Source: an uncultured virus (IMG/VR IMGVR_UViG_3300042367_000583)
Taxonomy: Duplodnaviria; Heunggongvirae; Uroviricota; Caudoviricetes
Direction: 5' to 3' (one strand)
Virus record (IMG/VR): IMGVR_UViG_3300042367_000583
Coordinates: 1 to 64,000 of that record
DNA: 64,000 nt
Part shown: in pieces, positions 12,613-64,000 of the stretch
Numbering within the stretch: the first letter of the stretch is position 1
Layout: every line of letters begins with the position of its first letter
Notes under the pieces: model-generated
Told to the model about the DNA's origin: nothing
What the model saw: only the letters and a program-made list of their open reading frames with translations
Database searches by the model: none
Translations under genes and position numbers: made by a program

Positions 12613-13055
12613 CATTGTAGATACATTGTAGATAGGGTGATCTACAACCGAAACCGTTACCCTGTAAAGGTTCTAGACTTTGTTGATAATGTTGATGTCT
12701 TATAAAGGAAAAAGATAAAAGAATAAACCAGACTGGACAATAAAAAACTGTAGAGTAAAAAAAGCAAACAAAGTCAACAGCAAGGCTGTTGGATTGTGAT
12801 TCGATTGTAGATAACCTTATCTACAATCGAAAGCCTTGCAGAGTATAGGTTTCAAGGTTTGTTTATCTTGTTGGCACTCTATACAGAGAGAGAAAAGATA
12901 GGGAGAAATAAACGAACTGGACAATAAGAGAAGGATAAAAAATCCTGACACAGGGAAATAGAGTGACAATATAAACAAAGTCTAGAACCTATATATATCA
13001 ATGCTTTTTATTGTTGATCAACTTATCTACAATCTATTTACAAACCAACAAACTA
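12613..13055. repeat. Non-coding array 1 of ~90-bp composite palindromic units
   Basis: Three units (two direct, one inverted) of TTGTAGATA-N4-TATCTACAA + GAAA..N..TAGGTTT core + TTTGTTGAT repeats. Confidence 0.8.
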
Positions 13056-13086
13056 TAAACCCCCTATGAGTCCATAGGGGGTTTAT
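13056..13086. terminator. Bidirectional hairpin terminator
   Basis: aaaccccctatg-agtc-catagggggttt. Confidence 0.75.
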
Positions 13087-13159
13087 CTTGAATGTCGGGG
13101 TGAAAACCCTTGCTTTTAGCGATGGGAGTGTCAAATGGGTTTAGGTATTTTTACCGTTT

Positions 13160-13864
13160 TTATCGTTTCTCATCGTTTCTCATAAGCATTCGACCGCCTC
13201 GCCATCCCCGTGCTTTTTCTCGTTCGGTTTCAAGTAGGTTAAATTTAGCTATATCGCGCTCTTTTTCAGCGTGTAATTCTTCGATCACTAGCCGCTTATA
13301 GTCAAGCATCGAGTTTTTACTGCTAAAGTCAGCGATCATAGTCTTTTGAGTTTTGATCAATTCCTCTAGTATTTGCTTCTCTTCGCTTAGTTTGACGATT
13401 TGGCTCTCAAGTTGCCTTACCTCTGTAATTGCCTCGCTCTTGACGCGAAAACCAGCTAATGTGTGAAGGAATAATCGGACTCCTAGCTTAAGCACTTGAG
13501 AGGCTAACTCAGGATTATCCTTTGGCAACCACTTACAGATTAGGTCTTCTGGGATTAGATAAACCCCTTGCAACCCGCCCTCTGTTTGAATTTGAGCCTG
13601 TTTTAGCAATCCTAATCCTAACCCCATTGTGTTACCCCCTTGTAACCCGCTCCCTGTTTGAATTTGAGGGTGATTTGGAGATTCAGAAGTTACCCCCTTG
13701 CTATCTTCTTTAGATAGCCGGTTTAATCGCATAGTGATAGCGTTGTGGCTTTTCCCAGACATACGAGCATATCCTTTGATTGAGGCAAAGCTTTCACCGG
13801 TCTGAGTGTCGATAATTAGCTCGATGCCGTCGTGATCAAAACGTTGTAAAATTAGATCAGCCAT
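13160..13864 (-). CDS. Antirepressor-like DNA-binding protein (KilA-N/Bro-like)
   Basis: GESFASIKGYARMSG helix-turn-helix, duplicated QIQT.GGLQG motif, C-terminal coiled coil. Confidence 0.65.
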   Translation of the reverse strand: MADLILQRFDHDGIELIIDTQTGESFASIKGYARMSGKSHNAITMRLNRLSKEDSKGVTSESPNHPQIQTGSGLQGGNTMGLGLGLLKQAQIQTEGGLQGVYLIPEDLICKWLPKDNPELASQVLKLGVRLFLHTLAGFRVKSEAITEVRQLESQIVKLSEEKQILEELIKTQKTMIADFSSKNSMLDYKRLVIEELHAEKERDIAKFNLLETEREKARGWRGGRMLMRNDEKR

Positions 13865-13947
13865 ATTAGCCTCTACAGTAGGTTGACTTGGTTAGTCCCT
13901 CGCGTCAACGAGGGCATATTAATATTGTACTACATTAAATAATCAAT

Positions 13948-13983
13948 GATTCCCCAATATAGAAAATTCTATATTGGGGAATC
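13948..13983. repeat. 36-bp palindrome (17-bp arms)
   Basis: gattccccaatatagaa-aa-ttctatattggggaatc. Confidence 0.9.
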
Positions 13984-14108
13984 TGGACACAGAAAAAACA
14001 AAAATCAGGGAACCTGCTAACAAAAACAACAAACTAATAAAACCTATATACATCAATACTTTCTACTGTTAATACACTGTTAACAGATTGTTAGCAGTGT
14101 ATTAACTA

Positions 14109-14136
14109 AAAACCCGTCAATCAATTGACGGGTTTT
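14109..14136. terminator. Bidirectional terminator
   Basis: aaaacccgtcaat-ca-attgacgggtttt just after the stop of 14139..14420. Confidence 0.8.
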
Positions 14137-14138
14137 GA

Positions 14139-14420
14139 TTAATTAAATTTTTTGTACTCTTGTAGTATTAGGTCGGTTGCCTCCTCAATTTGGTTTCCTT
14201 TTGATAGCAGTTTAAGGACTTTAGCCAGAACTTGCCTGACTCGTTCTTTACCTATTCCTAATTCTGCTGTAGTTGCTGCCACTCTAAAGCGATAGTTCCG
14301 ATGCCGGGAAGTTACAGGCACTGGGTCAAGATTATTGTTTTTTGCCCACACCAGATAGATGTAGGCTTGTCTAGGTGTTATCACTTTTGTTTTTCTAGTC
14401 TTAATTTTTGAAAACATCAA
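14139..14420 (-). CDS. Sigma70 region-4-like HTH protein
   Basis: TTAELGIGKERVRQV resembles the r4 signature (IG...SRERVRQI). Confidence 0.6.
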   Translation of the reverse strand: MMFSKIKTRKTKVITPRQAYIYLVWAKNNNLDPVPVTSRHRNYRFRVAATTAELGIGKERVRQVLAKVLKLLSKGNQIEEATDLILQEYKKFN

Positions 14421-14952
14421 TCATCTGGTATTCTTTGATTAAATCAAGGGAATATACACTCCAAATATGAGCGTCTAAAAAGTTAATTCCCGCATTTTTT
14501 GCCGCTAGTTTATCTTCTTCTCGATCTCCTACCATTAAAATATCGATAGGGTCTTTGTCAAAGGCTCTTAAAGCGGCAAAAATCATCCCAGGATTAGGCT
14601 TTCTGAATTGCTCAATAAGATCGGGGTACAGTTCATCAATTTGCACGCAGGAACATTTTCTCACGCGAAAACATTCTCGTCCTTTAAAATCAGGGCAAAA
14701 ATAAATGCAAGAAAGCCGTGGAAATATTTCTAAAGTTTTTTGCTGTTCTTCGATTGCACTTTTTAAGGATTTATGTCCGGCGGCTACTCCGCCCTGATTA
14801 GTGATTCCTATCATCGTCCATCCCTCTTGATGGTAAATTTCCATAGCTTTTATCGCCCCTTCGATTGGTTCCTGATCGTTTGGATCTTCGATGAATTTTC
14901 CGTTGGTAGATTGGCGGATCGTGCCATCAAGATCGAGCAATAAAGCTTTCAT
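14401..14952 (-). CDS. HAD-IIIA phosphatase (GmhB / PNK 3'-phosphatase-like)
   Basis: DLDGT, TNQGG, RKPNPGM and GDREED motifs. Confidence 0.9.
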   Translation of the reverse strand: MKALLLDLDGTIRQSTNGKFIEDPNDQEPIEGAIKAMEIYHQEGWTMIGITNQGGVAAGHKSLKSAIEEQQKTLEIFPRLSCIYFCPDFKGRECFRVRKCSCVQIDELYPDLIEQFRKPNPGMIFAALRAFDKDPIDILMVGDREEDKLAAKNAGINFLDAHIWSVYSLDLIKEYQMIDVFKN

Positions 14953-14979
14953 TTTTTCAAATTTTCCCCTACTTAAGCT

Positions 14980-15073
14980 TCAGGGCATCCCTAGTAGGGA
15001 TTAGATAAAGCGCACGCGACTACGACTATAGTACATAGTTTCAATTCCTAATAGGAGTTCTTTGTGCAGCTAC
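14980..15073 (-). CRISPR. Cas-less mini CRISPR-like unit (degenerate repeat / 22-nt spacer / degenerate repeat)
   Basis: Minus strand: GTAGCTGCACAAAGAACTCCTATTAGGAATTGAAAC + TATGTACTATAGTCGTAGTCGC + GTGCGCTTTATCTAATCCCTACTAGGGATGCCCTGA. Resembles cyanobacterial I-D repeats ending CCCTATTAGGGATTGAAAC (recalled, not searched). Confidence 0.6.
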
Positions 15074-15357
15074 CTTAAGTAAATCACTTAATTCTTGATA
15101 GGTGTTGGCGAAGTGTGACAGTTTATCGGGTGTCACTGTGGATACTTTTGTACTGGACTGATTGAATATCCGATTTATTGCCGATTTTCAGCATATTTGG
15201 TTGCTATACGCCCGTTCTTATTGATTATCACCGTTGAGAATATCAGTAAGCATTTTTAGTTACTATAAAAGGTTCTTCCTTTAGATCAACTTAATTTTAT
15301 CGGTTTATTTTTTGGTTACACGGCACAAAATTTGTTATTTTGGCATAATATTGATTA

Positions 15358-16068
15358 ATGGAGATTACATTTAATTTAATGCCAAGACGAAAAAAAGTAC
15401 CACCAAATAACTCAACCCCAACCCCTAAAAGCCCTGTATCAGGCAAGGCTAGTCGGTTTGATAATCTAATACCAAACGTACCTATCGAGTTTGGTCATTA
15501 TCCTATTTGGGAAAGACAACCCTACGAAATGTCTCAATGGTTTGAAAAATTTCAAGCTTTTTATATCCATCTTCCCGCGGGGTACAGAACATTAAATCGT
15601 GCTTTTAATGATTGCGCTATGTCGGCAGGTGAGGAAATTCCAAAGACCGAAAATAAACGCAGTATCACCGTTCCTGAACAATGGCAATTAGCTTATAAAA
15701 TTTATCGATGGGAGGATCGAGCTAAAGCATATTGGCTTAAAAAGATACAAGATCAAGAGGCTTATAGAGATGGAATTTTAAGCCAAATAATAGATAAAAG
15801 CATAAAGAATGCTTTTAGAACACTCGAAAAAAGCGAAGAGATAAACAATCGTTCGCTAGACGATCCTAACGGTAATTGGAGTCATAAAGACGCTGTGATC
15901 ATGGCTAAAGCTGTCACGGAAATAGTAGAAAAAGCATTAGGGCTTGACACTGTAGAATATGCTATTAGTATTTTACAAAAAAATGGGTTGGCCGCAATCG
16001 ACCCCGACGGGAACCTAATAGGACAGCCAACAGATAAAGGTAATTTAGAAGATGAAACTATCTTATAG
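15358..16068 (+). CDS. terS: Terminase small subunit
   Basis: Overlaps the terL start; W.RQP.E...F..F...W..RA.A signature. Confidence 0.7.
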   Translation: MEITFNLMPRRKKVPPNNSTPTPKSPVSGKASRFDNLIPNVPIEFGHYPIWERQPYEMSQWFEKFQAFYIHLPAGYRTLNRAFNDCAMSAGEEIPKTENKRSITVPEQWQLAYKIYRWEDRAKAYWLKKIQDQEAYRDGILSQIIDKSIKNAFRTLEKSEEINNRSLDDPNGNWSHKDAVIMAKAVTEIVEKALGLDTVEYAISILQKNGLAAIDPDGNLIGQPTDKGNLEDETIL

Positions 16069-18928
16069 AAATCTATCTAAGATAAAAGCAGCGACCGAAA
16101 AATATAAACTTGTTAATACCAAAGAAGAAATTGTTTTCCCTCAATTACAAGAGGGAAAACAAGCTTTATTTGGGGAAATTGACGCTGATGTAATTTTCTA
16201 TGGCGGAGGCGCAGGAAGTGGAAAAGCAGGGCGTGCATCCAAGACAGGAAAAGCGATTGGAGATAAAATGCTTTCTATGGCGGATGCGCTTTTAGGGAAA
16301 AGACTATTATCATATAATAGTAGTTTTAATGAATCGCAAATGAAAGATTCAAAGGTCTTGGGATGGAGCGGTCAATGGATTGACTTCTCTGATCTTAAAG
16401 TCGGGGATAAGATTATGAATCCTGATGGTCAGTATCAAGAAATCATCCAAATTCACGAACAGGGATTTAAACAATTTTATCGGGTTTCTTTTGAAGACGG
16501 TACAAGTACAGAATGCTGTGGCGATCATTTATGGTCTTTTTGGGAATCTCGCCGTAATAGCCGCAGGAAGTCTAGTAACGGGATTAATCGAATTGAGTCG
16601 AATCTGACACCTAGAGGATGGAATACTAATTACATTACAAGAGCAAGGGTTAGGGATACTAATTGGTTGATTACTGAGATTAGCAAAGGAAGACGGTTTA
16701 TTGTTCCAGTTAACGCGCCATTGCAATTTACGGCACTTAACAGGTCTGATACTGGCAGAGCCTATTTTTACGGTTGTTTAATAGGCGATGGTTCTTATTG
16801 TAGTGATTCAATTATCGTAACAACTTCTGATAGATTTATTGCTGATAAACTCGTTGATATTTTAGGGAAAGAAGCTACCGTTAAAACACGAACACCAATA
16901 AAAGATGACCGTTTAGAAGTTTTATCCGTCAACGCGACAAAAGTTCAATGGGTTAAGTCTTGGATAAGCAACAATGAATATAAAGGAAAAAGAGCGTGGG
17001 AAAAAGTATTTCCCGACGGCTATTTATCAGCATCTCTTGATTTTCGTTATGCGTTTGCTCAAGGTCTTTTTGATACAGATGGAACTGTTGGAGACAAAAA
17101 AAGAGAAGTTTCCTATTGCACAACCAGTAAAAATTTGGCTATTCAGGTAGCTTCTTTGGTTCGTTCTTTGGGTTATATGGCTAAGATTACGAAAAGACAA
17201 CCAAAATATAGATACAAAGGGGAGCATTTAGATGGTCGTACAGCTTACGTCGTGGCTGTTGAGGGAAATCACCTTGAATTACTTTTTAGTTTGCCGCGTA
17301 AAGTTGAACGAGCGAAAATGCTTGGACAATTTAATGGGGGATCAAGTTGGCCGGGTAAAAGAATTGTTTCTATTGAACCGACTGAAATTGATTACGCTCG
17401 TTGTATTACTGTTAGTAATCCAAATCATCTTTATTTAACAGATGATTATATAGTTACGCATAATAGTGCCGGGCTATTAATTGATTTTGCCCGTCAAGAA
17501 TTTATTAGCAATCCTGACTATCGGGCTGTTATATTTCGTCGGACGTATCCTGAATTTACTCAAGCGGGCGGTTTGATAGATGAAAGCCAAAAAATCTATC
17601 AAGCAGTGAAAGGTAATTTCATTGAAAAGCCTCCAGGGTGGCGATTTCCGATTGGATCGAAAATATCTTTTAGGCATTTACAATACGAAAAAACTGTCTA
17701 TGTTTATCAAGGGGGGCAAATTGCAAGGATAGGTTTTGATGAATTAACCCACTTTACAGAAGAACAGTTTTTCTATCTTCTCTCTAGAAACCGGTCAGTA
17801 TCGGGGATTAAACCCGCAGTTAGAGCAACCTGTAACCCCGATGCTGACTCTTGGGTAGCTAATTTTATCTCTTGGTGGATCGACCCTAAGACTGGGTATG
17901 CTATCGAAGAAAGATCGGGAATAATTAAATATTTTATCAGACAAAACGGTGTGGTTCATTGGGCCGACAGTAAACAAGAATTAATTGATAAATTTAGTCT
18001 TAAGGATGAACTGCTTGACCTTATTCCTAAAGATAAAAGAGAAAAGTTTTTATCAAATACAGATACTAATATTACACCAGATAAACTGATTAAAAGCTTT
18101 ACTTTTATTCCTGCTACGATTTTTGATAATCCTGCTTTAATTAGGGTTAATCCTACCTATTTGGCCAACCTTTATGCTTTGCATCCTATCGAACGGGAAA
18201 GACTTCTTAGAGGCAACTGGAAGATTAAATACGAAGCTGGTACAGTATTTGATCGGACTTGGTTTGAGATTCTCGATAAAATCCCCGATAATTGGAAATT
18301 AATAGGTAAAGTGAGATTCTGGGATTTAGCGGCAACTGCCAAAGAGAATGCTGAGAATTATCATTGCTATACCAGTGGCACTCTTGTCTATAAATACCAA
18401 AGAATTAAGAACACACTGCCAGATTCAACTGAGATTAAGGAATTTGCTTATGTGATTGCCGATAATATCTGTGAGCAGAAAAAAGTCGGGGAAGTTGAGC
18501 TAATGCTCGAAAATACTGCTGAACTGGATGGGAAAACTGTAGCTGTAAGATGGGAACAGGAAGGGGGATCGAGCGGTAAATTTGTTGAAAATACCATTAC
18601 TAATGTAATTAGAGAAAATCATCCGAACCATGACGTTAAAGCGATCGTGCCTCAAGGGGATAAGCTAACGCGAGCTTTACCAGTAGCCACGGCAGCTAGT
18701 CGGGGACAAATCTTTATCTTAAGAGATGGAACATGGAACACTCGGTTTTTAAATGCCTGCCAGGGTTTTGATGGTAGTAAAAAAACACCCCCGACTAATG
18801 ACATTGTAGATAGTCTATCAGGGGCATTTTATTCTCTTGAAAATGAGTTTCAAGAACATGAGAGGATTATTGGCACGATTGTTACTTCTGCTCCTGTTAA
18901 TCGGTTTAGAAGCGGTTTTAGGGGTTAG
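16052..18928 (+). CDS. terL: Terminase large subunit containing an intein
   Basis: Walker A GGGAGSGK|S, Walker B FDELTHF, TCNP, nuclease WDLA and DIVDSLS motifs. Confidence 0.95.
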   Translation: MKLSYRNLSKIKAATEKYKLVNTKEEIVFPQLQEGKQALFGEIDADVIFYGGGAGSGKAGRASKTGKAIGDKMLSMADALLGKRLLSYNSSFNESQMKDSKVLGWSGQWIDFSDLKVGDKIMNPDGQYQEIIQIHEQGFKQFYRVSFEDGTSTECCGDHLWSFWESRRNSRRKSSNGINRIESNLTPRGWNTNYITRARVRDTNWLITEISKGRRFIVPVNAPLQFTALNRSDTGRAYFYGCLIGDGSYCSDSIIVTTSDRFIADKLVDILGKEATVKTRTPIKDDRLEVLSVNATKVQWVKSWISNNEYKGKRAWEKVFPDGYLSASLDFRYAFAQGLFDTDGTVGDKKREVSYCTTSKNLAIQVASLVRSLGYMAKITKRQPKYRYKGEHLDGRTAYVVAVEGNHLELLFSLPRKVERAKMLGQFNGGSSWPGKRIVSIEPTEIDYARCITVSNPNHLYLTDDYIVTHNSAGLLIDFARQEFISNPDYRAVIFRRTYPEFTQAGGLIDESQKIYQAVKGNFIEKPPGWRFPIGSKISFRHLQYEKTVYVYQGGQIARIGFDELTHFTEEQFFYLLSRNRSVSGIKPAVRATCNPDADSWVANFISWWIDPKTGYAIEERSGIIKYFIRQNGVVHWADSKQELIDKFSLKDELLDLIPKDKREKFLSNTDTNITPDKLIKSFTFIPATIFDNPALIRVNPTYLANLYALHPIERERLLRGNWKIKYEAGTVFDRTWFEILDKIPDNWKLIGKVRFWDLAATAKENAENYHCYTSGTLVYKYQRIKNTLPDSTEIKEFAYVIADNICEQKKVGEVELMLENTAELDGKTVAVRWEQEGGSSGKFVENTITNVIRENHPNHDVKAIVPQGDKLTRALPVATAASRGQIFILRDGTWNTRFLNACQGFDGSKKTPPTNDIVDSLSGAFYSLENEFQEHERIIGTIVTSAPVNRFRSGFRG
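16226..17464 (+). mobile_element. Class 3 intein with LAGLIDADG homing endonuclease in the TerL Walker A motif
   Basis: Starts with Ala after GSGK and ends VTHN|S. WCT triad present (DHLW, ARCITV, VTHN). LAGLIDADG motifs GCLIGDG and GLFDTDG. Confidence 0.9.
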
Positions 18929-22381: not shown

Positions 22382-22768
22382 CTAGGGCTTTTGTAAAAAC
22401 AAACAGCCTAAAACATTTGAGGGGTTAGACTCATCCCGGACGATTGCACCGGGGGCAAGGCAGTCCGTCCGTCCTTGTTTACTAGCGGCCGCCGCCACTA
22501 GCCCAGAGACAATGTAGAAAGTTTCCCCGTCTGCATCTGGTAGCCCCTCAATATCCCCGTAAATAACGGTTTCTACTGGGATACCGTCAATGGGTTCTGC
22601 GGGTTCGTTGGACATTTTAACTCGCGGGAGAATCCCCGATGCGGGAATTTCCTTAAGAATCACAATCTTCTCTTTGTTTCCCAGAAACTGTTTCTTTGCA
22701 TCTTGGGTGATGCCAGCTTCTTTGTTTAATATGGTGATAGTGTGAGGGGTTGCGTTGACAATAGCCAT
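22382..22768 (-). CDS. NxTPH-family small protein, candidate Crn4-like ring nuclease
   Basis: Likely start MAIVNATPH at 22768 (TTAGGAG RBS); P.SG..PR, EGLP, YIVS..VA, R.D...P...VRD...GC motifs. Confidence 0.55.
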   Translation of the reverse strand: MAIVNATPHTITILNKEAGITQDAKKQFLGNKEKIVILKEIPASGILPRVKMSNEPAEPIDGIPVETVIYGDIEGLPDADGETFYIVSGLVAAAASKQGRTDCLAPGAIVRDESNPSNVLGCLFLQKP

Positions 22769-22823
22769 GGTTTTTACTCCTAAATAATTGTTAGCTGACA
22801 ACTGATAACTGATAACTAATTCA

Positions 22824-23351
22824 TTAATCACAAACTACCCGAAAACCAGTATTGCAGCAAGATTCTTCAAAATAGAGGTAACTAAGTTGTGCCGCACAAC
22901 ATCTATAGGAGTCGGTGTCAAATCCGCCCCCACGGGGAACCTTTTGACACCATTCCCAGACGTTGCCGTGCATATCGTACAATCCCCAAGCATTGGGCTT
23001 TTTCTGACCCACAGGATGAGTTATTAATCCAGAGTTATCTTCGTACCAAGCGTAATCTTTTAGCTGATCGAAATCATTACCAAAGCTAAATAGGGTTTCT
23101 GTACCAGCGCGACAGGCATATTCCCATTCTGAATTTGTAGGTAGGCGATAGTTTTTCCCTGTTATTCGTCTCAATTTCTGGTAAAAAGCTACGGCATTAT
23201 CATAACTAACTTGTTCTACTGGATTTTGGGGTTTGTTTATGAAATAAGAGGGGTTGTTTCCCATTACCTCTTGATATTGTTCCTGAGTAATGGGATATTT
23301 GCCAATTTTAAAGGTTACATTCGGAATCTCTATCATTTCAATCTCAATCAT
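22824..23351 (-). CDS. FGE-sulfatase / CLec protein, paralog of 8768..9370
   Basis: RLPTNSEWEYACRAG, PNAWGLYDMHGNVWEW, GFRVVCD. Confidence 0.9.
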   Translation of the reverse strand: MIEIEMIEIPNVTFKIGKYPITQEQYQEVMGNNPSYFINKPQNPVEQVSYDNAVAFYQKLRRITGKNYRLPTNSEWEYACRAGTETLFSFGNDFDQLKDYAWYEDNSGLITHPVGQKKPNAWGLYDMHGNVWEWCQKVPRGGGFDTDSYRCCAAQLSYLYFEESCCNTGFRVVCD

Positions 23352-43743: not shown

Positions 43744-44668
43744 TTAAAACAGTTTTAACTGTAATGGAGAATTATCTATTATTTCCTCTATCGGTTCATC
43801 TGGAATAGGTTCTATAGGTTGGTCTAGTCTGTTACAAGCTATTTGATAATATTCTAACTCTTTCTCGATACAGATATAATTTCTACCTAATTCCTTACAG
43901 GCTAATGCAGTAGTGCCAGAACCACAAAAAGGGTCTAAGACTGTCCCACCTTCAGGGGTCAGCATTTCTACTAATCGCTTCATGATTTCTAGCGGCTTCT
44001 GTGGGGTGGTTGTAAATACCTTTCCCAGCCCTTCCCGTCTGCCGATAAGGTGGCAAAAAAGACCATACATTTGTAAAATTAACATCTCTGATTGCATACT
44101 CAAGGCGACTCATTTCAGGCTTTTTAAATTTTCTTGTTTTGTTAAATCTTGCTTTTTGAGTGTCTGCAAAATGACAGTCCTCCTTCCCAAAAGACCCTGT
44201 TTTGATTTTAGCTATTAATGCTGAAAAGTACCTTGAAAAAGATTCAATTGAATGGGTATCAAACATTATTCCTGGTATTTTTACATCTGTATAACAACCT
44301 TGTGTAATATAAAATTTATTTGTTTTTTTTGTTTTATATATAACTATTGATTCATGTGCTTTGTTTAAATTTTGTGGATGGGTAGCACAGCAATTCCTCT
44401 TCACCCATGAGATATGTTCACAATAATGCAACTTTTCATTATTAGCTGAATTAATCCAATTAACCATAGTGGGCATTTGTCCAAAAAACGCATAAAAGCC
44501 ATTGGTGACTCGTTTTACTTCTTTGGTAAAAAGTGGAATATCGACCACAGAATCCCATTCAGCTAATCCAATACCATAAGGCGGATCTGTGATTACAGCG
44601 TCAATAGAACCATCAGGAATAGTTTTTAAAACCTCAAAACAATCACCGTGAATAATTTGATTAATCAT
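43744..44668 (-). pseudogene. N6A/N4C DNA methyltransferase split by a frameshift near 44001
   Basis: TDPPY in the upstream frame, DPFCGSGTT in the downstream frame; the conserved HPTQKP is broken (CAC CCC ACA GAA GCC). Confidence 0.85.
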
Positions 44669-63167: not shown

Positions 63168-63246
63168 TTAATACTCCTTAATTCCCATTTTTAGATTTTT
63201 TAGCTTTTCAGGTCTTTATAGGTTGCTGATAACTGACAACTAACTA

Positions 63247-64000
63247 TTAAAAATCTTCACTGAGAAGTTCACCAGGATCAATATTTTCACTGCGAACTTC
63301 TATTACTGGCTTTAGCCTTGCGTCTATAGCTTTTTTTAGGAGGTCGGCTAATTCTTTTTCAGAGGTTGCTTGTTGGGCGACTTGTTCTGCTTCTGATTGA
63401 GGTAATCCTTGATTTACAGCCCAAATAATTCCAGCTTGTTTGCGCTCTTCTGATAGCGACGACTGTGGTTTGCTTGGCAAAGATACTTCCACATCTACTA
63501 CATTACCAGATTCGCCAATTTCAGCGCCTAGCTCGTCAGGATTATAAATAGGTGCGCCAAGTGCTAAGTCGGGGCAAAACTCACGGAACCCGTTAGAAAT
63601 CGCCCTTGCAAAAAGCATATTTTTGGGGTATTTTTTCCAGTTAGGATTCCCTGCGAGAAGTCCTGCTGCTTGGGCATCGTCTTTTGAAAAAGAACTAATC
63701 CCTAAAGATTCCCAGTTGTTTTGCCAAAGCTCAAAAAACTCTAATTCGCAGATTTCTGGCGTGTGTTTAATTTTTTTGTATCGGTATTTACCCGATCCTT
63801 TAATTAAAGCCGCCATTAAATTAGCACTTAATGCAGGTTTTCCTTGTATTAAATGAATACCAGTCATCGAAGCAAAGGCTGGAATACCTAACTCTTTTCC
63901 TGCTAAAACTTTGACAAAACATTTAGCAGCACTTTGTACATCCCCAAACATTCCTGATTTTGCCAAAATATCAGAAACTTTGTAAATATCATCGACTGTT
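63247..64000 (-). CDS. RecT/Bet-like ssDNA annealing protein (5' end probably off the right edge)
   Basis: G.ELG...SM..I..IQGKP...AGL.....W.KYP..ML.ARA. Confidence 0.8.
   Translation of the reverse strand, partial: TVDDIYKVSDILAKSGMFGDVQSAAKCFVKVLAGKELGIPAFASMTGIHLIQGKPALSANLMAALIKGSGKYRYKKIKHTPEICELEFFELWQNNWESLGISSFSKDDAQAAGLLAGNPNWKKYPKNMLFARAISNGFREFCPDLALGAPIYNPDELGAEIGESGNVVDVEVSLPSKPQSSLSEERKQAGIIWAVNQGLPQSEAEQVAQQATSEKELADLLKKAIDARLKPVIEVRSENIDPGELLSEDF

Follow-up and report, generated by a model that had tools for sequence, protein, structure and literature searches.

What could a lone unit with the anatomy of a CRISPR RNA do in the genome of a phage? The question is raised by positions 15074 to 14966, on the minus strand, of a stretch of 64,000 nucleotides (the window) that forms the first 64 kb of the IMG/VR record IMGVR_UViG_3300042367_000583, an uncultured virus of 84,017 bp that is 92% complete according to CheckV. 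Read directly, this segment consists of a first repeat-like unit (PsiR1), a 22-nt guide-like sequence (PsiS) and a second repeat-like unit (PsiR2), in that order. The record encodes a terminase with a LAGLIDADG intein, a ribonucleotide reductase, NblA, tail proteins and a 2,821-aa tape measure and is therefore that of a tailed cyanophage, whose host, as judged from sequence, is Microcystis. An earlier reading of the letters alone (the original prediction) had described the locus as a Cas-less CRISPR RNA (crRNA)-like unit, a candidate RNA anti-CRISPR or hijacker of the host effector complex. The interpretation favoured here, with slightly better than even confidence, is that of a phage crRNA-like RNA anti-CRISPR that mimics the Microcystis type I-D repeat and would act as a decoy or as a guide.

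The hairpins, the handle, the 22-nt spacer and the loss of the second handle are all as first described. PsiR1 opens with a 5′ flank (15057-15074) that agrees with the host repeat at 5 of 18 positions and in which GCACAAARAAC is the sole part kept among phages. This flank leads into the hairpin TCCTATTAGGA (TCCT-ATT-AGGA, 15046-15056), for which the host has CCCT-ATT-AGGG, and then into an intact 8-nt 5′ handle, ATTGAAAC (15038-15045), identical to the 3′ end of the host repeat. PsiS, TATGTACTATAGTCGTAGTCGC, occupies 15016-15037. The 5′ flank of PsiR2, GTGCGCTTTATCTAAT (15000-15015), aligns with the 5′ part of the host repeat at about 11 of 18 positions with two gaps, and is kept among phages apart from one AAT indel. 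Its hairpin CCCTACTAGGG (ATCCCT-ACT-AGGGAT, 14987-15001) has the core CCCTAYTAGGG, which equals the host hairpin except at the middle loop base (ACT in the window; the host-like ATT in most relatives). In place of the PsiR2 handle stands GCCCTG, within a tail, ATGCCCTGAAGCTTAAGTAGGGG (14966-14988), that continues into a second possible stem, CCCY...RGGG. Every one of these parts is a minus-strand feature.

The host repeat given by the original prediction, GTTCCAATTAATCTTAAACCCTATTAGGGATTGAAAC, was found without a single difference in Microcystis arrays. When species-representative genomes were scanned, it was the commonest repeat in 17 Microcystis-named loci; three further loci belong to two contigs of a metagenome-assembled genome (MAG) labelled Crocinitomicaceae and to one Mastigocoleus contig. 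Its assignment to type I-D is borne out by the one genome examined in this respect, a complete M. ichthyoblabe genome, in which an array of this repeat family lies directly behind cas10d-csc2-csc1-cas3-cas6-cas4-cas1. Against the 3′ 19-mer of the host repeat, PsiR1 is identical at 17 of 19 positions, and both differences fall in the outer stem pair, where C-G has become T-A; the compensatory exchange that had been proposed is thus confirmed. With up to three mismatches allowed, this 19-mer has a single match in the window, at the unit and with two mismatches, while any match at all occurs in 2 of 100 dinucleotide shuffles. The pattern of the second hairpin, AATCCCTAYTAGGGAT (with the window's own AAT prefix), is likewise unique to the unit in the window.

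The locus thus holds two host-repeat-like units in the same orientation around one spacer. The parts that Cas6 processing requires, as far as can be read from the letters, are a hairpin and handle upstream of the guide and a hairpin downstream of it, and these are kept. That they alone would be conserved had been anticipated, and the hairpin and handle do match the host while the 5′ flank of PsiR1 has diverged. In sequence, its likeness to the Microcystis I-D repeat falls on just those positions that Cas6 processing and the 5′ handle would call for. Its guide is short: host spacers are mostly 33-39 nt long (range up to 42 nt), and those of an array that the phage itself carries outside the window are 34-37 nt long, against 22 nt for PsiS.

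The unit is also conserved in related phages, as the original prediction required, being present in 32 instances: the window, 29 IMG/VR contigs with an exact PsiR1 and two with a U-G wobble variant. A search with a degenerate PsiS returned 31 IMG/VR contigs, namely the 29 with an exact PsiR1 and the two in which one C of the PsiR1 stem is replaced by T. When the gene next to the unit, encoding a HAD hydrolase, was used as the query instead, eight IMG/VR loci were recovered (80-98% amino-acid identity), and all eight carry the unit. In all 32 instances the handle is the same and the stems are preserved, the single C to U wobble in two contigs being the only variation in the PsiR1 stem; the loops vary (ATT or AAT in PsiR1; ATT, ACT or AAT in PsiR2). 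PsiS occurs as seven haplotypes among 29 contigs (counts 11, 9, 5, 1, 1, 1 and 1), with variable positions 5, 12, 14, 20 and 22. One variable site lies in positions 1-11 and four in positions 12-22, a pattern expected for a seed and hence favouring a guide.

The conserved block spans GCACAAARAAC to TAGGGG. It remains nearly unchanged, with an identical 22-mer, across at least three unrelated upstream contexts and in front of four different downstream genes. At least four such genes are found, encoding the HAD hydrolase and proteins of 78, 127 and 120 aa; the latter three open reading frames (ORFs) have no Pfam or PHROG family, and the downstream genes in the four contexts match no known Acr family. 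With a near-fixed 22-mer beside differing genes, the unit is a selected module and not an ordinary variable spacer. A scan of IMG/VR for TTGAAAC-N16-30-GTGCGCTTTAT returned 30 standard units and 20 unrelated chance matches; since no other inserts were found between the repeats, the module holds one guide family instead of a variable spacer set. The inverted octamers said to bracket the unit, TACTTAAG (15081-15074) and CTTAAGTA (14977-14970), are present in the window and contain CTTAAG, itself palindromic, but are not conserved among related units: the upstream octamer is missing in 6 of 29, and the downstream one reads CTTTTAGTA in a further subset. They are therefore not a defining feature.

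The Crocinitomicaceae-labelled MAG (Bacteroidota) mentioned above contains the exact unit on one contig (C205) and phage-type and Microcystis-type arrays on two others (L017 and L031). The contigs bearing the unit and the arrays are most likely phage and Microcystis contigs that were mis-binned.

Pressure from the host system on this phage is considerable. Among 353 spacers extracted from Microcystis arrays, 34 match the phage (at least 30 nt, at most two mismatches), and the 5′ flank of the protospacer is GTT in 17 and GTC in 11 of these, that is, in 28 of 34. With GTN, which, following the original prediction, we take to be the type I-D protospacer-adjacent motif (PAM), this argues for strong I-D pressure. 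Examples within the window are the protospacers at 2174-2208, 43812-43842 and 63215-63248. The remaining six protospacers have other flanks (ATT three times, GCC, CTT and ATA), which may be PAM escape mutations.

Host genomes contain a counterpart of the unit. In two of 17 Microcystis genomes a mini-array lies about 1.45 kb upstream of cas10d and on the opposite strand (approximately 2700-2800 on the minus strand of contig L198; 122-145 on contig L130). Its PsiR1 reads GCCTATTAGGT followed by ATTGAAAC, an intact handle after a hairpin whose outer pair is changed, and its PsiR2 reads CCCTAATAGGG followed by ATAACAGT, a host hairpin with its handle lost. The host mini-array and the phage unit are thus alike in the altered outer pair of PsiR1, the intact handle, the canonical PsiR2 hairpin and the lost PsiR2 handle. 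They differ in their guides and in the distance from the handle to the second hairpin, which is about 69 nt in the host and 38 nt in the phage. For the host guide, a GTC-flanked match at 15 of 18 positions lies shortly before the TATAAT of the neighbouring cargo operon (genes for a 92-aa protein and a nucleotidyltransferase), whereas the phage guide has no such target with a PAM at a promoter. The layout of the host element agrees with that of the regulatory mini-arrays which Shmakov et al. (bioRxiv 10.1101/2023.03.03.530964) described for type I-D.

Repeat-like units are present in other Microcystis phages as well. MaMV-CH01 (PP681321.1), a Ma-LMM01-like Fukuivirus, has three within 500 bp, in unannotated gaps (1041-1158 and 1507-1543). 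Two of them form a pair 81 nt apart, and the third is a full solitary repeat that ends in ATTGAAAC 12 nt before the ATG of coding sequence 184L. Similar repeat matches were found in four more MaMV genomes.

If the unit is indeed an RNA anti-CRISPR, it would form the 5′ leader of the transcript of a variable gene cassette, and host Cas6d would cleave at the base of both hairpins. The anatomy implies a released RNA that would start with the handle AUUGAAAC, carry the fixed 22-nt guide and end in the PsiR2 hairpin. Such an RNA would compete with host crRNAs for Cas6, Cas5 and Cas7 and give rise to a shortened I-D complex unable to license cleavage. This complex might merely titrate Cas proteins, in the manner of the RNA anti-CRISPRs known as Racr, or be steered by its seed to a host promoter, in the manner of viral Cracr and host CreR RNAs. 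Each of these two forms is, taken singly, a tentative proposal, with action as a guide slightly favoured over that as a pure decoy. The complete crRNA anatomy and the seed-like variation speak for a guide, and the missing target speaks for a decoy.

A number of observations weigh against this interpretation, beginning with expression. No promoter was found right at the unit. The nearest candidate is a weak predicted sigma-70-like promoter, TTGATC-16-TATAGT, on the minus strand at 15262-15289, about 190 nt upstream. It is the sole promoter-like site in 14800-15500, where shuffled sequences give a mean of 2.1 such sites, and is a possible start of the transcript carrying the unit. The predicted fold of the RNA from 15110 to 14950 is not unusual in energy (z = -1.0). 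Metatranscriptome data, consisting of assembled contigs from four runs of four studies (of 19 runs), cover 14962-15117 in variant contexts, with DNA carry-over possible and no RNA ends readable. Bins 15144-15277 are uncovered, which is uninformative because the relatives diverge there. To the same side of the balance belongs the closeness of the relatives (80-98% amino-acid identity in the neighbouring gene), as a result of which part of the conservation is shared ancestry.

A further difficulty is the target. The 84-kb genome contains no self-target for the 22-mer or for the six spacers of the phage array, and the best match of the 22-mer in the phage itself has seven mismatches, with a longest exact run of 9 nt. 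Host targets were sought in 17 species-representative Microcystis genomes, where partial matches of 9-11 nt are indistinguishable from chance unless their location is known beforehand. Allowing up to three mismatches, the 22-mer had two matches there, both at three mismatches, against 28 for a reversed control, and a full-length host protospacer was rejected. GTN plus 12 nt of the guide gave seven matches in six of the 17 genomes, all within one miniature inverted-repeat transposable element (MITE) of about 170 nt; the seven copies represent one independent event, within chance, and the site was likewise rejected as a target. The MITE itself has the terminal inverted repeats TAGGGTTTGCTGAA ... 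TTCAGCCAGCCCTA, is inserted at unrelated places (around position 1500 of loci L054 to L060) and holds GTT followed by the 12-nt look-alike of the guide.

Searches of cas loci (the I-D locus of one complete genome ±20 kb, and cas10d ±1.5 kb in seven genomes) led to the same outcome. The only site with a PAM, GTT-TATGTACTA (a GTT with 9 nt of the guide), occurs in two genomes within the 92-aa cargo ORF, at 1.25 kb upstream of cas10d; on a rough estimate, about 0.06 such sites would be expected by chance in the DNA covered. Neither this site, matching over GTT and 9 nt only, nor a 15 of 22 match at the start of the cargo operon, which has no PAM, is convincing. Compared with the guide and target of the host mini-array, PsiS shows similarity at chance level, reached by 2157 and 860 of 5000 shuffles, respectively. 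The handle followed by the seed has no exact match in 401 Cyanobacteriales genomes; with one or two mismatches it occurs in 105 genomes, and the reversed control is of the same order (its counts were not summed). A seed of at least 9 nt in common with a host CreA/CreR guide, by which Cracr RNAs were discovered, was thus not found among these 401 genomes and the one host guide. The proposal that the spacer steers the host complex to a cas promoter or another target with a GTN PAM accordingly gained no support, nothing above chance having been found in the Microcystis genomes searched. What stands of the original hijacker or decoy reading is the mimicry, the conservation, the PsiR-PsiS-PsiR layout and the existence of a host I-D mini-array of the same layout; what it lacks is a target.

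The strongest competitor, a minority possibility that deserves to be taken seriously, is that the unit acts in cis, as an mRNA leader or cassette boundary serving processing (possibly by host Cas6), stability, translation control or gene-swap recombination, with a 22-mer that is no guide. The promoter-stem-loop cassettes of T4-type phages provide an analogy. Placement agrees with this explanation, as in every case a gene start follows the unit directly, the genes in question being four different ones, and the solitary repeat of MaMV-CH01 ends 12 nt before an ATG. In five of the eight relatives recovered with the HAD gene, a copy of the second hairpin and tail, devoid of PsiR1 and PsiS, lies between an inserted 78-aa ORF and the HAD gene, an arrangement that also counts against a crRNA. 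In the minimum-free-energy structure, moreover, the TAGGGG tail is able to pair with the 5′ arm of either hairpin. A cis-acting leader leaves unexplained why the 8-nt handle should be letter-perfect in 32 instances and why PsiR1, guide and PsiR2 should follow one another in the order and geometry of a crRNA. Nor is the hairpin element a general intergenic repeat, since in this phage it occurs only at the unit and in the array.

An intermediate arrangement is conceivable, if rather unlikely, in which host-Cas6 sites stand before (and in some relatives between) small, swappable genes for counter-defence. Cleavage by host Cas6 would in that case do two things at once, freeing a decoy or silencing crRNA and converting the mRNA to its active form by trimming, and expression of the genes would be coupled to active I-D or III CRISPR in the infected cell.

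It is improbable that the unit is what decay has left of an old array and has no function today. Degeneration, of the sort seen when terminal repeats erode, affects the 5′ half of PsiR1 and the PsiR2 handle, and the last repeat of the phage array is likewise degenerate and has an ACT loop. Decay is hard to reconcile with a unit that stays near-unchanged across contigs with unalignable flanks, with stems and handle invariant while loops vary, and in which PsiR2 has been lost in one of 31 related copies only (L069).

The label 'Cas-less' given to the phage proved wrong, and this brings in another potential user of the unit. A hairpin-plus-handle scan of the whole record gave six matches, all on the minus strand, namely the unit and five repeats at 70.6-71.0 kb. 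The latter belong to a type V-U2 locus outside the window (record positions 70,560-72,992, minus strand) that comprises a gene for C2c8 and an array of six repeats, GAAGCAATTAACCTTAAGCCTTATTAGGGATTGAAAC, with a degenerate terminal repeat that has an ACT loop. The array has six spacers; its repeats all start with GAAGC, as opposed to GTTCC in the host, and differ from the host repeat at six positions. The c2c8 gene encodes 626 aa and ends about 100 nt upstream of the array on the same strand. Its product scores 465.6 bits with NCBIfam NF038192 (cut-off 350) and 1e-166 with PADLOC Cas12u2, and retains an intact zinc ribbon and intact RuvC motifs GLDMG, ILEDL and HADQNAAANI (D-E-D). Class 1 cas genes were absent among 104 ORFs of at least 60 aa searched with Pfam and among 95 (7 + 88) searched with PADLOC, scans that passed over shorter ORFs and one that runs across the end of the window. 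C2c8 was also observed in three of 17 Microcystis genomes, and in at least two of them an array of this repeat family follows it closely.

The unit might accordingly be thought a guide for C2c8, comparable to the delocalised homing guide of type V-K transposons. The effector does lie beside an array of the same repeat family, on the strand of the unit, and a near-complete relative carries the unit, C2c8 (94% identity) and an array as well. The spacers of that relative are all different, which indicates that the array turns over. The co-occurrence fails elsewhere: among complete relatives (100%) that have the unit, one of 64.5 kb (G024) shows no C2c8- or TnpB-like match and no other repeat, and two (G025 and G027) have no C2c8 orthologue, only a 33%-identical TnpB-like gene of 569 aa. 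The unit is therefore not dependent on the phage effector, from which it is separated by 56 kb along the record (or by about 28 kb should the genome be circular), and the single protospacer found for the phage array has the I-D PAM GTT. A role with C2c8 is thus held to be very improbable; most likely, the unit relies instead on Cas6 and the I-D machinery of the host, possibly also on type III.

That protospacer concerns the array itself. Spacer 1 (70,940-70,974) matches 35 of 35 nt, with a 5′ GTT, in a Microcystis contig (L197, 1321-1355) that encodes a primase 31% identical to that of the phage and looks like another phage or prophage. This suggests that the phage array is I-D-compatible and would use host I-D adaptation and interference against competitors. 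By extension, the 22-mer itself might direct host Cas proteins against competing phages or plasmids, as in the mini-arrays of archaeal viruses, but this has very little to recommend it beyond the spacer 1 match, given that no protospacer was found in IMG/VR (all 31 exact or degenerate matches of the 22-mer being the unit itself) and that the guide is fixed and too short for I-D interference.

The surroundings of the unit hold further features. Upstream, a hairpin GTGACA-N10-TGTCAC (15115-15136, minus strand) emerged from an alignment of 19 unique units; relatives have a compensatory version, GTGCCA-N10-TGGCAC, that overlaps the stop codon of the upstream gene. As the hairpin is absent in the second upstream context, it lies outside the minimal module, and it may be a terminator-like element or an operator. 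Immediately 5′ of PsiR1, 21 nt on the minus strand (TTAAGTGATTTACTTAAGGTA, 15071-15091) equal a site within a conserved host nucleotidyltransferase gene (MNT-type antitoxin-like); all 21 nt are identical (100%) in 10 of 17 Microcystis genomes, each match having an E value of about 1e-3. This stretch is variable among phages and missing in one upstream context, and the identity may be a recombination scar. A scan of 13000-17000 against Rfam (E up to 10) gave weak chance matches, none at the unit, and a nucleotide search of cultured phages with 14400-16100 gave no match.

Downstream, the first gene (14401-14952, minus strand) encodes a 183-aa HAD-IIIA hydrolase that matches PNK3P (30.4 bits, cut-off 22) and Hydrolase_like, and whose product is predicted to resemble a polynucleotide 3′-phosphatase. 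About 1.1 kb downstream of the unit, a 234-aa gene (13160-13864, minus strand) without a Pfam or PHROG match has an N-terminal helix-turn-helix (HTH) region recognised by a CRISPR-associated HTH model (PDLC01151, 2.7e-6); possibly, its product regulates the locus. Further away, a 148-aa protein (22382-22828, minus strand) is recognised (8.6e-16) by a PADLOC model named 'unknown small protein, sometimes fused to CARF' and is a candidate counter-defence gene, belonging to a CRISPR type III-associated family yet found in a phage. The 958-aa large terminase subunit (16052-18928, plus strand) has its LAGLIDADG homing-endonuclease, intein-like insert at residues ~327-407.

Microcystis, a cause of toxic blooms in fresh water, defends itself against its phages to a large extent by type I-D CRISPR. 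The I-D effector is also used as a plant genome-editing tool. Experiments have established RNA anti-CRISPRs of the Racr and Cracr kinds for a few CRISPR types, in Pseudomonadota and Bacillota. A mimic conserved in 32 phage contigs, together with solitary repeats in Ma-LMM01-like phages, offers concrete test cases. Should the mimic work, it would help to explain how these phages persist despite dense spacer coverage and would extend the principle of crRNA hijacking to the I-D effector.

Among the close known systems are the solitary repeat units of phages, which have been shown to act as RNA anti-CRISPRs for type I-F (Camara-Wilpert et al. 2023, PMC10651486). Like these, the unit is a viral repeat mimic unlinked to class 1 cas genes, the sole cas-like gene being c2c8, 56 kb off, and by analogy it could sequester Cas6 and Cas7. 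It differs in having two repeat-like units with a conserved guide between them, as compared with a single repeat. Solitary repeat units of type I-D from IMG/VR3 are already catalogued in supplementary file 3 of the same study (PMC10651486); the text of its supplementary table contains neither the three related contig identifiers checked nor the PsiR1, phage-array and host-repeat 3′ strings. Titles and abstracts on Microcystis cyanophage anti-CRISPR or Ma-LMM01, and PMC9382816, as far as consulted, make no mention of repeat mimics in Microcystis phages.

Cyanophages that carry CRISPR loci offer a second comparison. Phage vB_AphaS-CL131 has a type V-U2 locus in which a TnpB-like effector lies next to an array (Sulcius et al. 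2018, PMC6293099), and cyanophage N-1 carries a CRISPR array (Chenard et al. 2016, PMC4916379, as described in the CL131 study). The V-U2 locus of CL131 parallels the one that the present phage carries outside the window. The arrays of N-1 and CL131 hold multiple, variable spacers, whereas the unit is a separate, fixed element with one guide.

A further close resemblance is to viral Cracr RNAs, reported for types V-A, I-F, I-E, I-C and I-B in Pseudomonadota, Bacillota and Actinomycetota and defined by at least nine PAM-proximal bases that recur in a CreA/CreR guide of the host (Liu et al., bioRxiv 10.1101/2024.10.29.618823). Viral I-F Cracr guides have a median length of 19 nt, compared with 25 nt for host CreA/R (bioRxiv 10.1101/2024.10.29.618823), and that preprint, as far as consulted, mentions no I-D or cyanobacterial case. 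With Cracr and with phage mini-arrays (bioRxiv 10.1101/2023.03.03.530964) the unit shares a phage-encoded position away from cas genes, a PsiR-PsiS-PsiR layout, host-like repeats, a short guide, here of 22 nt, and a locus of variable small genes. Unlike a Cracr, it has no host guide counterpart or target in the genomes searched, and it would be of type I-D in a cyanophage. The unit is thus of a kind already known, but the CRISPR type, I-D, and the host phylum, that of a cyanophage, would be new.

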